A stretch of 64,000 bases of DNA from Nannocystis bainbridge (GCF_028368995.1 NZ_JAQNDL010000002.1:1344001-1408000); one strand, 5' to 3'. Positions 5,186 through 63,090 are shown, counted from the first letter of the stretch. Program-made: numbers and translations. Notes: generated from the letters alone by a model not told the origin.

Positions 5186-6340
5186 ATGGCGCCGCACCCG
5201 GAAGCAGGTCGCGCCCCCGCGGGCCCGACCGACGCGCTGCGGCGGCTGCACGACCGCCACGCGGAGCGGCTGCGCACCGCGGCGCGCTGGCTCGGGATCG
5301 ACGATCACGAGCGCGACGCGGCGGTGGCGGGCTGCTTCCGCAGCGCGGCGGCGGCTGTCCCGGAGGACAGCGCGACCGGCTGGGCGACGCTCGTGCGCGC
5401 GCTGGGGCGGGCGCGACCGTCCGACGTGCCGCCGGAGCCGCGCGCGACCGGGGAGGCGGCGCTGCTGGGGTTCCTCGGCCGCCGCACCGCCGACGAGCGG
5501 GCCGTGTTCGCGCTGGCCGAGCTGGGGGGCTTCGACGCGATCCAGCTGGCGCAGGCGATCGGGGCCCCGCCGGCCGCGGGTCAGGCGCTCATCGTCGGCC
5601 TGCGGCGGGCGTTCGCGGCCGATCCCGCGGTCGCGGCCGCGGGCGGTCCGGCGTCGGTGCTGGCCGAGTCGGTGGTGGTCGACCGCGCGCCGCCGGGCTG
5701 GCGGGCGTCGGCGCTGGCTGAACTTCTGGGCATGTCCGAAGAGACAGGCGAGCCGGGGATCCCGCGGGCGGCGGCGGTCGCGGTGGCGATCCTGGCGATC
5801 GCGGTGCTGGTGGCCCTGCGCCCGCGCGCGCCGGTGCCCGCGCCCGAGCCGTCGCTGGCGTCGGTCGAGGCGGCGGCGAGCGAGCGACCGCCGCTGCACG
5901 AGACGGCGGTGCCGACGCCGGCGCCGGCGATCGCGGCGCCGCCGGTCGTGGGTGAACCAAAGGACATGGCCAAAGGCGCAGGTTCGAAGCGCCCGGTGGT
6001 GGTGCGCAAGAAGGGCGGGCGGGCGCCGAGCGCCGCGGCGAAGCAGACGCAGGCCCAGCGCGACGCGGAGGCGGCGGCCAACGACCCCGGCAACGTGATC
6101 GTCGAGCTCGAGATGCTCGGGGCGGCCCAAAAGGCGCTGAAGGGCTCGCCGGGGCAGGCGCTGGCGTACGCCGACCAACACGCGCGCGACTACCCGAACA
6201 GCCAGATGGTCGAGCTCCGCGCGGTCGTCCGCGTGCGTGCGCTGTGCGCCCTCGGCCGGGCCGACGAGGCCCGCGCGGAGGCGCAGCGCCGGCCGTGGTC
6301 GAAGGTGCAAACGGCGCTGCGCGAGGGCTGCGGGGGATGA
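5186..6340 (+). CDS. Degenerate ECF-sigma-like N-terminus fused to a TM helix and a periplasmic TPR-like domain
   Basis: LRRLHDRHAERLRTAARWLGI...AAVAGCF (sigma2-like), ERAVFALAELGGFDAIQLAQAIG (sigma4-like), TM AAAVAVAILAIAVLVAL, C-terminal ALAYADQHARDYP...VRALCALGRADEAR. Confidence 0.65.
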   Translation: MAPHPEAGRAPAGPTDALRRLHDRHAERLRTAARWLGIDDHERDAAVAGCFRSAAAAVPEDSATGWATLVRALGRARPSDVPPEPRATGEAALLGFLGRRTADERAVFALAELGGFDAIQLAQAIGAPPAAGQALIVGLRRAFAADPAVAAAGGPASVLAESVVVDRAPPGWRASALAELLGMSEETGEPGIPRAAAVAVAILAIAVLVALRPRAPVPAPEPSLASVEAAASERPPLHETAVPTPAPAIAAPPVVGEPKDMAKGAGSKRPVVVRKKGGRAPSAAAKQTQAQRDAEAAANDPGNVIVELEMLGAAQKALKGSPGQALAYADQHARDYPNSQMVELRAVVRVRALCALGRADEARAEAQRRPWSKVQTALREGCGG

Positions 6341-6538
6341 GGCGCACGCGGAGGCGCGGCGTGGCGCCCGGCGTCGCGGGCCTGGGCTCGCGGGTGCGGG
6401 CATCCGCGGCGGATCCGCGGGCTCGCGCGAGATGTCCTGGCGATGCTGGCCGAAGCGCCCGACGACCCCGCGCGGCTGACGGCCCGCGCCGAGTCGCTGG
6501 GGTCGGGTCGCTGAACAGCCCCGCGCGCCGGGTGTCCG

Positions 6539-6618
6539 CGACATGTGCTTCAGGACATGCTCGTTCGGGCATGCTCTTCGGGACATGACCGATTGGGCAT
6601 GCCCTCGAGGTCAGGGCG
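6539..6618. repeat. Intergenic 14-bp-phased array between convergent genes
   Basis: Cores at 6542, 6556, 6570, 6584, 6598, 6612; the last overlaps the amylase stop codon. Confidence 0.9.
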
Positions 6619-61910: not shown

Positions 61911-61947
61911 GCGGCTCCGGGCTTCGGCGCGGGGCCGCTTGCTTTTT
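61911..61947 (+). terminator. Probable intrinsic terminator
   Basis: GCGGCTCCG...CGGGGCCGC stem followed by TTGCTTTTT. Confidence 0.6.
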
Positions 61948-62289
61948 GGCGGCACGCGCATGCGAGTGACGGGGCAGAGTGCTCTGCGGACGCAGGACGA
62001 GCGGCGGCCGGGAGTGACACGGGGAGCTGCGAGGTTTCGCGGGCGCGGCTGCGAGTGACGCGGGGAGGCGCGAGGCGGACGCAGCACCAGCGACCGCTGC
62101 GAGCGGCACCGGAGGCGCGAGCTTCTGCCGCCGCAGGACGTGCGAGGTCTGGGACTTGACGAGGTTGGTGGCGGGCTCGGCCGTCGTGGATCGAGGATCG
62201 TCGCCGTCGGGCGCGATTGACTTCGCGGGCGGCACGAGGTCTGATCGCGCCACGTCGGGCCGCGGGCCCGGCACGCCAAGGAGATCTCG

Positions 62290-63090
62290 ATGTCGCGCGT
62301 CGCTCTGTCTCTCGCTCTCGCGCTCGCGTGGGCTCCGCTCGTCGGCTGTGCCGTGAGCGCCAGCGCCAGTTCTGGCTCGGGGACCATGTCCTCCGGGACA
62401 GGTCCTCAGGGCAAGCCGGCGCGGCGGGTCGACGAGGGCGGAGGCGAGGCCGGCGGGGGCGGGGCTGCACCGGCCGGGCCGCCGCCGTGTCAGCCGGCGC
62501 TGGCCGACGCTCCGACCGCGCTGTTCGGCACGCGAATCCTGGTGCGTTTGCCGAAGGGCGTCGAGCTGGCGGAGCAGAACCCGTTCTACGCCCAGGCGGT
62601 CGCGCCCGACCAGGCGACGAATTGCGGGCAGCCGGTGGCGTACGCGGCGGTCGGCTTCTTCGAGTATCCGAACGCGGCCCCGGCGGCAGTGCGCGACCAG
62701 GTGCTCGAGCTGCGGGGGATCGCCAAGGGCGCGGCGACGTGGGACGACGAGGGGACGCGCGGCAAGACGTACACCGGCGCGTACACGGTGCCGGCCGACG
62801 CGGCCACTGGCGCGCCGGCGGTGCGCGGGTGGTTCGTGCTGCGCGACGCCAACGACAAGTACGGTTACTTCGCGCTCTACGAGACCGACCCGGCCCACTG
62901 GGACGCGCTGAAGCCGGTGCTGGTGGCGAGCGGCAAGTCGCTGCTGGTGAAGCCGCGCATGGTCGCGTCGCCGGCCGAGGCGCAGGTGAGCGCCGCGCCG
63001 CCGCCGACGTCGGGCGGTCTCTCGGCCGAGCCGGCGGGCGCCAAGCCGGCGAAGCCCGCGAAGGACGCGAAGGCCGTGAAGGCCAAATAG
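62290..63090 (+). CDS. Lipoprotein, paralog B
   Basis: AAGGAG RBS, lipobox LVG-C, RLPKGVELAEQNPFYA, GWFVL, YET.P..W.AL. Confidence 0.85.
   Translation: MSRVALSLALALAWAPLVGCAVSASASSGSGTMSSGTGPQGKPARRVDEGGGEAGGGGAAPAGPPPCQPALADAPTALFGTRILVRLPKGVELAEQNPFYAQAVAPDQATNCGQPVAYAAVGFFEYPNAAPAAVRDQVLELRGIAKGAATWDDEGTRGKTYTGAYTVPADAATGAPAVRGWFVLRDANDKYGYFALYETDPAHWDALKPVLVASGKSLLVKPRMVASPAEAQVSAAPPPTSGGLSAEPAGAKPAKPAKDAKAVKAK

Follow-up and report, generated by a model that had tools for sequence, protein, structure and literature searches.

Why do unrelated proteins encoded in one stretch of a myxobacterial genome carry the same short peptide? The question is raised by 64,000 nucleotides of Nannocystis bainbridge DNA (GCF_028368995.1 NZ_JAQNDL010000002.1:1344001-1408000; hereafter the window, with positions counted from its first letter), for which an original prediction had claimed that a DNA motif is written into unrelated proteins and leaves an (M/L)S-x-x-(T/A)G footprint. 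We analysed the window together with the genome that contains it (G000: 11.05 Mb in five contigs, 71-72% G+C; the window is C3:1344001-1408000) and with related genomes, among them a relative that is collinear with the window (G001). The peptide footprints are best explained, with a probability that we put at roughly 80%, as by-products of a clade-specific DNA word, TGTCC-N4-GGACA, which would arise by substitution and be held in place by constraint at the DNA level.

The string common to the predicted sites, ATGTCC-N3-G-N-GACAGG, has 17 matches in the window with at most one mismatch, against 0.08 expected. Its core is a 14-base palindrome, TGTCC-N4-GGACA, found in 1987 copies genome-wide and on all five contigs; if the two half-sites are instead set 0-3 or 5-12 bases apart, each spacing yields only 0-16 copies genome-wide. 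Core counts at zero, one and two mismatches are 1987, 4258 and 7530, compared with 3, 161 and 3152 in a reversed-genome control. Allowing one mismatch, the 11-Mb genome has ~6,000 copies, and several thousand weaker ones come on top, the two-mismatch class being only 2.4-fold above the control. The spacer bases are free, as the commonest spacer, CCGA, accounts for 107 of the 1987 copies, and in a logo of the core sites conservation of sequence stops at about 20 bp. Since half-sites are also found directly joined as GGACATGTCC (956 copies genome-wide), the repeating unit is this 10-bp palindrome plus four free bases, and TGTCC-N4-GGACA is one junction of the resulting 14-bp-periodic unit, GGACATGTCC+N4. 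In intergenic DNA, 3038 of 8640 distances between neighbouring CATG tetramers are exactly 14 nt, and the longest runs of 14-nt units reach 12.

A published description of TGTCC-N4-GGACA was not found in the literature searched, with subscription-only papers outside it, and among the matches listed for GGACATGTCC there we found p53 or unrelated eukaryotic work. GGACATGTCC is identical to the consensus p53 half-site, and the core plus its flanks fits ATGT-N8-ACAT, an operator type of regulators of the PadR family; neither match is more than a resemblance. A 59-kb viral record matched by a 24-nt double unit has a single core site and is uninformative.

Genes were called with a codon log-odds caller trained on the genome itself, giving 8228 genes and 83-86% coding DNA; a caller based on a threshold for G+C content at third codon positions (GC3) was dropped as too strict (6575 open reading frames, ORFs; 77% stop-to-stop coverage). 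Of the 1987 perfect sites, 1165 (59%) are intergenic, 805 (40%) are wholly genic and 17 lie across gene edges, against a baseline of 14.7% intergenic and 83.4% genic for 20,000 random positions. A further 1808 one-mismatch sites lie in ORFs (the reversed control has 2 perfect and 133 one-mismatch sites), and 1626 of the 8228 genes, about a fifth, have an in-ORF site. The perfect sites are scattered along gene bodies, with one site in 494 genes and at least two in 108.

The three reading frames are used unequally (458, 282 and 65 perfect sites), whereas random positions give near-equal thirds. In the commonest frame, xxT GTC CNN NNG GAC A (frame 2), the word encodes (P/H/A/D)-V-(P/L)-x-D-(S/M/I/R). 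The second, xTG TCC NNN NGG ACA (frame 1), encodes D-(L/M)-S-x-(G/R)-T-(G/A/S), which is the footprint first described; that footprint is present but incomplete as an account of the motif, being second commonest after V-(P/L)-x-D. The rarest, TGT CCN NNN GGA CA, encodes C-P-x-G-(Q/H). This ranking follows codon cost: V-(P/L)-x-D is spelled with GTC (57% of Val) and GAC (87% of Asp), both preferred codons; (M/L)-S-x-(G/R)-T depends on the rare ACA (2.2% of Thr; 3787 ACA codons), and C-P-x-G-(Q/H) on TGT and GGA, both rare (the latter 2.8% of Gly). The motif had been said to use A-ending codons that are otherwise rare, and it does so: GG precedes 28.8% of ACA codons but 5.1% of ACC and ACG codons, and 878 of the 3662 ACA codons scored (24%) lie inside frame-1 sites with at most one mismatch. 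The encoded peptides are raised across the proteome relative to shuffled proteins, from MS.GTG (42 against 1.4) and V[PL].DMS (73 against 1.4) to CP.G[QH] (153 against 17) and [ML]S.[GR]T (469 against 157); the excess of the last tracks the DNA word, because the perfect core encodes only 252 of the 469. Large, low-complexity putative ORFs rich in S, P, A and D (e.g. G000 C3:712626-717846, C2:1216679-1218890 and C5:658300-661411) contain 7-12 perfect sites apiece; every one of these sites uses the V-(P/L)-x-D frame, and there is one to each protein repeat.

To which level, DNA or protein, does the constraint belong? Over 979 kb aligned between G000 and G001 (89.4% identity), 88 in-ORF perfect sites were fully aligned. 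At these sites 848 of 880 core bases are conserved (96.4%), compared with 293 of 352 spacer bases (83.2%; P = 9e-14) and 1799 of 2112 far-flank bases (85.2%; P = 2e-21, both by Fisher's exact test). Third codon positions are conserved at 321 of 332 positions in cores (96.7%) and at 621 of 802 in spacers and flanks (77.4%, P = 3e-18), and G001 retains 64 of the 88 cores unchanged, where the flank rate would predict 17.7. Because cores, third positions included, outconserve spacers and flanks, the constraint is on DNA rather than protein; by these alignments it acts on the 10 core bases, and not on the 4-base spacer or the encoded protein. For 38 intergenic sites, identity is 88.4% in the core, 55.3% in the spacer and 68.0% in the flank, and 17 of the 38 cores are kept against 0.8 expected, figures that are subject to the alignment caveat given below.

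The sites are found in the softer parts of proteins, conservation being lower in the in-ORF flanks (85%) than across genes as a whole (90.4%). Within ORFs only copies that the protein tolerates persist, giving three frame-specific footprints. Site density also rises with residence time: genes shared with G001 carry 0.398 sites per kb (124 in 312 kb) and unshared genes 0.122 (6 in 49 kb), in a small sample from one region.

We aligned 12 sites codon by codon with same-genus orthologs and with those of genera and families in which the motif is scarce or absent; G009 and G011 share no more than 2-3 genes with the window near the pyridoxal phosphate (PLP) enzyme, so deep comparisons were made gene by gene. 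Genes with in-ORF perfect copies that were confirmed by Pfam include those for the PLP enzyme, PheT, RecG, a GH15 protein and a ThrA-like protein. In the PLP enzyme, TCG GTC CCG AAG GAG ACG has become TCT GTC CCG AAG GAC ACC without any indel; compared with 12 more distant orthologs, the changes include one synonymous change against GC3 bias, plus E to D. In the B3_4 domain of PheT, TAC GCG ATC CGC GAC GTG AAG has become TAT GTC CTC GAG GAC ATG TCC, so that Y-A-I-R-D-V-K reads Y-V-L-E-D-M-S by substitutions only. The GH15 gene has acquired two adjacent units by substitution only, including the synonymous changes GCC to GCT, GGC to GGT and GAG to GAA, and the RecG site differs by one adjacent codon of indel. 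In gene 50792-51400 an ancestral L-S-G-R was recoded (TCG to TCC, CGC to AGG, GGC to GGT), with L to T and one adjacent codon indel. No motif-length insertion was found at any of the 12 sites. The alignments show that in-ORF copies arise in place by point substitution, not by insertion. Only at Tgt, among the sites first listed, does a motif-poor genus share residues and codons: C-E-T and its codons TGT GAG ACA also occur in G011, so this site is partly ancestral. Orthologs of the ThrA-like gene and PheT in G007 are split into two matches, and Tgt or RecJ matches in G002, G011, G008, G022 and G025 have single in-frame stop codons; these may be frameshifts, pseudogenes or draft-assembly errors.

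The word is confined to part of one family. A strict 18-mer form of it occurs in 10 of 10 same-genus genomes (2-266 copies; 369 in G000). Of eight further genera in the family two have it, with 5 and 2 copies, and it was not found in 12 other families; controls were at zero throughout. Counting the 14-nt core in 41 genomes from 17 genera of the family gave 333-1987 copies in the genus itself, 87-169 in genus g2, 67-295 in genus g4 and a marginal 6-20 in genus g28; the remaining 13 genera have 0-10 copies, and controls likewise have 0-10. In g2 and g4 (e.g. G011, G013 and G056) the 67-295 copies stand against 1-10 in controls. This gradient of copy number across genera indicates that the word arose in one sub-clade and expanded stepwise, and it predates the genus.

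Most copies lie in non-coding DNA just 3' of stop codons, often in arrays of 2-12 units. Convergent intergenic regions have 1.63 sites per kb, tandem ones 0.63-0.70 and divergent ones 0.20, and 739 of 1335 convergent regions have a site with at most one mismatch. Sites in convergent regions lie a median of 23 nt from the nearest stop, and those in tandem regions a median of 71 nt past the upstream stop versus 204 nt ahead of the next start. In the window, an array of ~12 units with a 14-nt period (RGRCATGYCY+N4) fills the convergent intergenic region at 30108-30300; folded as RNA it reaches -99 kcal/mol (z = -7). Other arrays occupy 13430-13552, in the convergent region downstream of a GlgP-like gene; 24158-24262, immediately past the stop of gene 23663-24127, where the units are GGACAGGTCC variants; 37050-37195, immediately past the stop of the minus-strand gene 37251-40319; and 2735-2855, between two minus-strand genes. 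About half of intergenic DNA is alignable between G000 and G001. Array length differs between the two genomes (216 versus 141 nt within 30095-30310, and 171 versus 103 nt within 13390-13560); the spacers are almost unalignable and the CATG phase is kept. Arrays with strong hairpin potential lie just past stops, and the flank profile of the logo has no T run that would give a U tract. No Rfam family matches the window arrays; the whole window gives only two tRNA genes at the gathering score (63190-63262 and 63306-63378, both on the plus strand).

What kind of molecule might read the word? Within the central CATG, C and G are near-invariant, with 50 single mutants against 1987 consensus copies and Watson-Crick replacements essentially absent; change is readily tolerated at the third base of each arm (1889 single mutants). 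In ORFs the first flanking pair is complementary in 359 cases against 359.9 expected, so that the palindrome ends at the 14-bp core; because the flanks do not extend it, just a 5-bp stem is possible there. A base-specific core and synonymous-site conservation despite so short a stem make a symmetric dimer that recognises double-stranded DNA the favoured kind of reader. The putative reader, base-specific and most likely such a dimer, would pack side by side on arrays, and genera g2 and g4 are the natural place to look for its gene. Abundance of the word might be upheld by weak selection for many binding sites, serving nucleoid organisation or acting as a roadblock or insulator at transcript ends; we offer this tentatively. 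Alternatively, a transmission or recombination bias of the uptake-sequence type might uphold it, a proposal that we consider equally tentative. Homologs of ComEC and DprA are present in the genome and do not discriminate, because both are near-universal in bacteria.

The foremost alternative is that a hairpin in RNA or single-stranded DNA is the primary function, the 3' arrays being bidirectional terminators or 3'-end stabilisers and the ORF copies spill-over. The density in convergent regions, the proximity of sites to stops and the folding of the array at 30108-30300 are all as this proposal would have them, as are some compensatory pairs and a weak bias for wobble over A.C mismatches on the sense strand. 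Structure alone, however, leaves near-invariant bases without Watson-Crick substitutes unexplained, and it fails on the synonymous conservation of ORF sites whose 5-bp stem is nowhere extended; there is also neither a U tract in the logo nor an Rfam family, and the wobble bias is small (54-56%). We consider a primary hairpin function unlikely.

Mutational or repair bias alone, for example methyltransferase-tied mismatch correction as once proposed for highly iterated palindrome 1 (HIP1) of cyanobacteria, would account for point substitutions that create sites against the GC3 bias of the genome, and in the available text of two HIP1 papers such palindromes are tied to orphan methyltransferases (PMC4390886, PMC13756078). 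It does not account for retention of orthologous sites far above the neutral expectation (64 of 88 against 17.7), and Xu et al., in the part of their paper available to us, reason likewise for HIP1 in preferring selection to replenishment by biased repair (PMC5861425). Nor does a uniform bias predict the eightfold gap in density between convergent and divergent regions, and we regard this explanation as improbable.

A tiny mobile element inserting in frame into ORFs, akin to repetitive extragenic palindromic (REP) sequences with their REP-associated tyrosine transposases (RAYT), to miniature inverted-repeat transposable elements or to Rickettsia palindromic elements, is very improbable, and for the ORF copies it is largely refuted. 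Palindromic units do cluster at 3' ends, as in REP sequences and bacterial interspersed mosaic elements (BIMEs), and ORF 2853-5117 contains a recent 42-bp tandem triplication. Against this, motif-length inserts are found at none of the 12 sites, five of which show substitutions only or one adjacent codon indel; the spacer is unconserved, nothing is conserved beyond about 20 bp, and genes unshared with G001 carry fewer copies, not more. No PF01797 (Y1 transposase) was found in the genome, which is 90.5% complete, whereas the control search found it in six of 14 reference genomes. Least likely of all, and already refuted by the synonymous-site and frame data, is that the peptide itself (e.g. MSxGTG) is a selected protein motif common to unrelated proteins: its patterns are 3- to 50-fold above shuffled proteomes, yet the DNA word is found in each of the three frames and on either strand, 59% of its copies encode no protein, and the spacer-encoded residues vary while core bases are fixed even when synonymous.

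Several points weigh against a DNA word with a double-stranded reader. The reader protein is putative, its existence being suggested by sequence patterns. Compensatory double mutants are mildly enriched (T-A at pair 4-11, 38 against ~9.5; C-G at pair 3-12, 146 against ~93), and within 100 nt of stops the sense strand shows a slight excess of G.U-compatible mismatches (203 against 160, P = 0.03). These core covariation and wobble-orientation signals are weak and decide nothing. Intergenic flanks are complementary beyond independence (707 against 586), and together with the wobble bias this makes some hairpin-level selection in the 3' arrays likely. Neither uptake sequences nor HIP1 offer a parallel to arrays that run to 12 units. 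Intergenic conservation may be inflated by mis-registered alignment of neighbouring array units. Gene calls come from our own codon-usage caller, with a Pfam check that covers 20 proteins. Lastly, only 12 sites were compared with distant orthologs, and five of these, in variable loops (GlgP, the ThrA-like gene twice, the TM2 linker and the RecJ N-terminus), are too variable to classify.

Turning to the individual sites of the window, all 13 peptides of the original prediction were found at or beside their predicted positions. A perfect core lies under five of them (12274, 49995, 62386, 44853 and, on the minus strand, 51230) and a one-mismatch core under six (21011, 5732, 15614, 43078 and, on the minus strand, 39456 and a three-copy array at 3924-4031). 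The remaining two, LSHEAGD (27709) and MYKKTGE (10821), have a two-mismatch core. Twelve of the 13 are in frame within called genes; the other, MSLGTS (44853), is in a 72-nt gap or at an alternative start. MSSETGE (RecJ) and MSSGTGPQG (62386) are at predicted starts and may be 5' ends instead of internal sites. The window has 20 in-ORF sites with at most one mismatch: 13 in the frame first described, and six in the V-(P/L)-x-D frame and one in the third, these seven being absent from the original list.

Perfect cores in frame 1 occur at 12275-12288 (+) in the GlgP-like phosphorylase gene 11710-13398, encoding E-M-S-S-G-T-G in a variable loop, and at 51236-51249 (-) in gene 50792-51400 (L-S-G-R-T-G-G). 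The GlgP core is kept in five of six core-clade genomes while its spacer varies (TCCG, GCGA or TCGA) and the residues change. Two perfect cores in frame 2 are absent from the list of the original prediction: one at 54095-54108 (-), in the Cys/Met-metabolism PLP enzyme domain of gene 53988-55172 (S-V-P-K-D-T), and one at 5356-5369 (+) in ORF 5186-6340 (A-V-P-E-D-S), which is identical in G001. The latter ORF also has a one-mismatch core in frame 1 at 5733-5746 (+; M-S-E-E-T-G-E). Units abut in pairs at 10808-10835 (+) in the GH15 gene 9057-11675, where a perfect A-V-R-A-D-M is followed by the two-mismatch M-Y-K-K-T-G-E; at 49996-50023 (+) in the TM2-SHOCT linker of gene 49605-50162 (Q-M-S-A-G-T-G-P-S-G-Q); and, with one mismatch each, at 20998-21025 (+) at the predicted start of RecJ (21011-22714; M-S-S-E-T-G-E). 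The GH15 gene holds a further one-mismatch core at 10136-10149 (+; frame 2, Q-V-L-E-D-R).

Other one-mismatch cores were found at 15615-15628 (+) in the N-terminal extension of Tgt (15584-16843; the partly ancestral L-S-C-E-T-S), at 39462-39475 (-) in ORF 37251-40319 (L-S-R-E-T-D-G), at 43079-43092 (+) in the GT51 transglycosylase gene 42421-44817, N-terminal and outside its domain (L-S-Q-G-T-A-G), with a further such site at 42983-42996, and at 41574-41587 (+) in the anti-sigma-like gene 41131-41775 (frame 2, P-V-L-A-D-S), where the G001 copy is perfect. The two-mismatch site at 27710-27723 (+) in gene 25516-29460 (L-S-H-E-A-G-D) is the weakest of those first listed and could be a chance match. 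On the minus strand, ORF 2853-5117 has three tandem 42-bp blocks (3 x 14 bp) at 3924-4050, each encoding M-S-S-G-T-G-P-F. The blocks are near-identical and in frame, a recent tandem duplication of motif units in coding DNA; the ORF is without a Pfam match, and its G001 ortholog is merely 71% identical. Perfect cores also occur at 62387-62400 (+), at the predicted start of ORF 62386-63090 (M-S-S-G-T-G-P-Q-G), and at 44854-44867, between the GT51 gene and the next gene, reading M-S-L-G-T-S if translated. At this last site the motif ATG precedes the called start (44889) by 36 nt and is in frame with it, and RecJ and ORF 62386-63090 are called from motif ATGs. The ATG of the unit can mimic a start codon, and start annotation in the clade may be biased.

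How does the word compare with known systems? The uptake signal sequences (USS) of Pasteurellaceae and the DNA uptake sequences (DUS) of Neisseriaceae are single asymmetric 9-12-mers. The word resembles them as a short, clade-specific sequence in hundreds to thousands of copies, and differs in being a bipartite palindrome with a free 4-nt spacer, 59% intergenic and arranged in 14-bp-periodic arrays. In the available text of Findlay and Redfield (2009; PMC2817400), uptake sequences double the frequencies of the peptides they encode and their choice of frame is tied to codon preference; the present word likewise accumulates in ORFs, raises its encoded peptides and is distributed among frames by codon preference. 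By the same text, uptake sequences prefer poorly conserved positions and are scarce in genes without homologs, as is the case here. The residues that uptake sequences encode are described there as about as conserved as other residues, whereas the core studied here is more conserved than its surroundings. HIP1 (GCGATCGC), a hyper-abundant cyanobacterial palindrome, is given as 15- to 300-fold over-represented and as conserved both within and between ORFs, and so as a target of DNA-level selection rather than of a peptide or RNA role, in the accessible part of Xu, Lawrence and Durand (2018; PMC5861425); on that account our palindrome, conserved in and between ORFs beyond neutral expectation, behaves similarly. 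Unlike HIP1, a contiguous 8-mer, it consists of 5+5 bases around a 4-nt spacer within a 14-bp tandem unit, and it is strongly biased to gene 3' ends.

REP sequences and BIMEs, with RAYT, are extragenic and spread by transposition. The present units share with them clustering just downstream of genes, greatest abundance between convergent genes and folding into stable hairpins; they differ in that 40% of perfect copies (805 of 1987) are in ORFs, by substitution, in their unconserved loop, and in that no PF01797 was found in the genome. Rickettsia palindromic elements are inserted blocks of ~100-150 bp that add a peptide segment. Both they and the present word are repeated palindromic DNA translated within unrelated proteins, but here existing codons are rewritten and no block is inserted. 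The original prediction had likened the motif to uptake sequences, HIP1 and Rickettsia palindromic elements alike. The first two comparisons fit, given accumulation in place by substitution, and the third fails, none of 12 sites having a motif-length insert. Its central claim, that a DNA-level constraint overrides codon bias and shapes protein sequence, is borne out by the recoding seen against orthologs (in the PLP enzyme, PheT, GH15 and RecG) and by the conservation of third positions.

To our knowledge, few lineages, namely Pasteurellaceae, Neisseriaceae and cyanobacteria, are known to have hyper-abundant DNA words with an effect on proteome sequence, and the cause of HIP1 has been debated for decades. 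The word described here is a useful case, combining a steep gradient (background, 67-295 and about 2000 copies), an unambiguous substitutional origin and very strong synonymous conservation. A bipartite palindrome in 14-bp phased gene-end arrays points to a specific kind of reader, and the gradient across relatives means that this reader might be traced by phylogenetic profiling or DNA pull-down. In practical terms, the word affects gene finding, as the ATG of its unit mimics a start, and codon-usage models, and it matters for expression constructs and transformation substrates in a group valued for natural products. Going further, it is conceivable, though doubtful, that a myxobacterial genus and two sister genera mark their own DNA with this word, that a sequence-specific dimeric protein reads it and polymerises on the 14-bp gene-end arrays, and that thousands of codons have been rewritten in the process; the pressure would then be biased DNA uptake or recombination, or selection for the organisation of chromosomes or transcript ends. 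If true, this would be the first system of the uptake-sequence and HIP1 class in Myxococcota, and no earlier member of that class would have had a bipartite palindrome or phased arrays.

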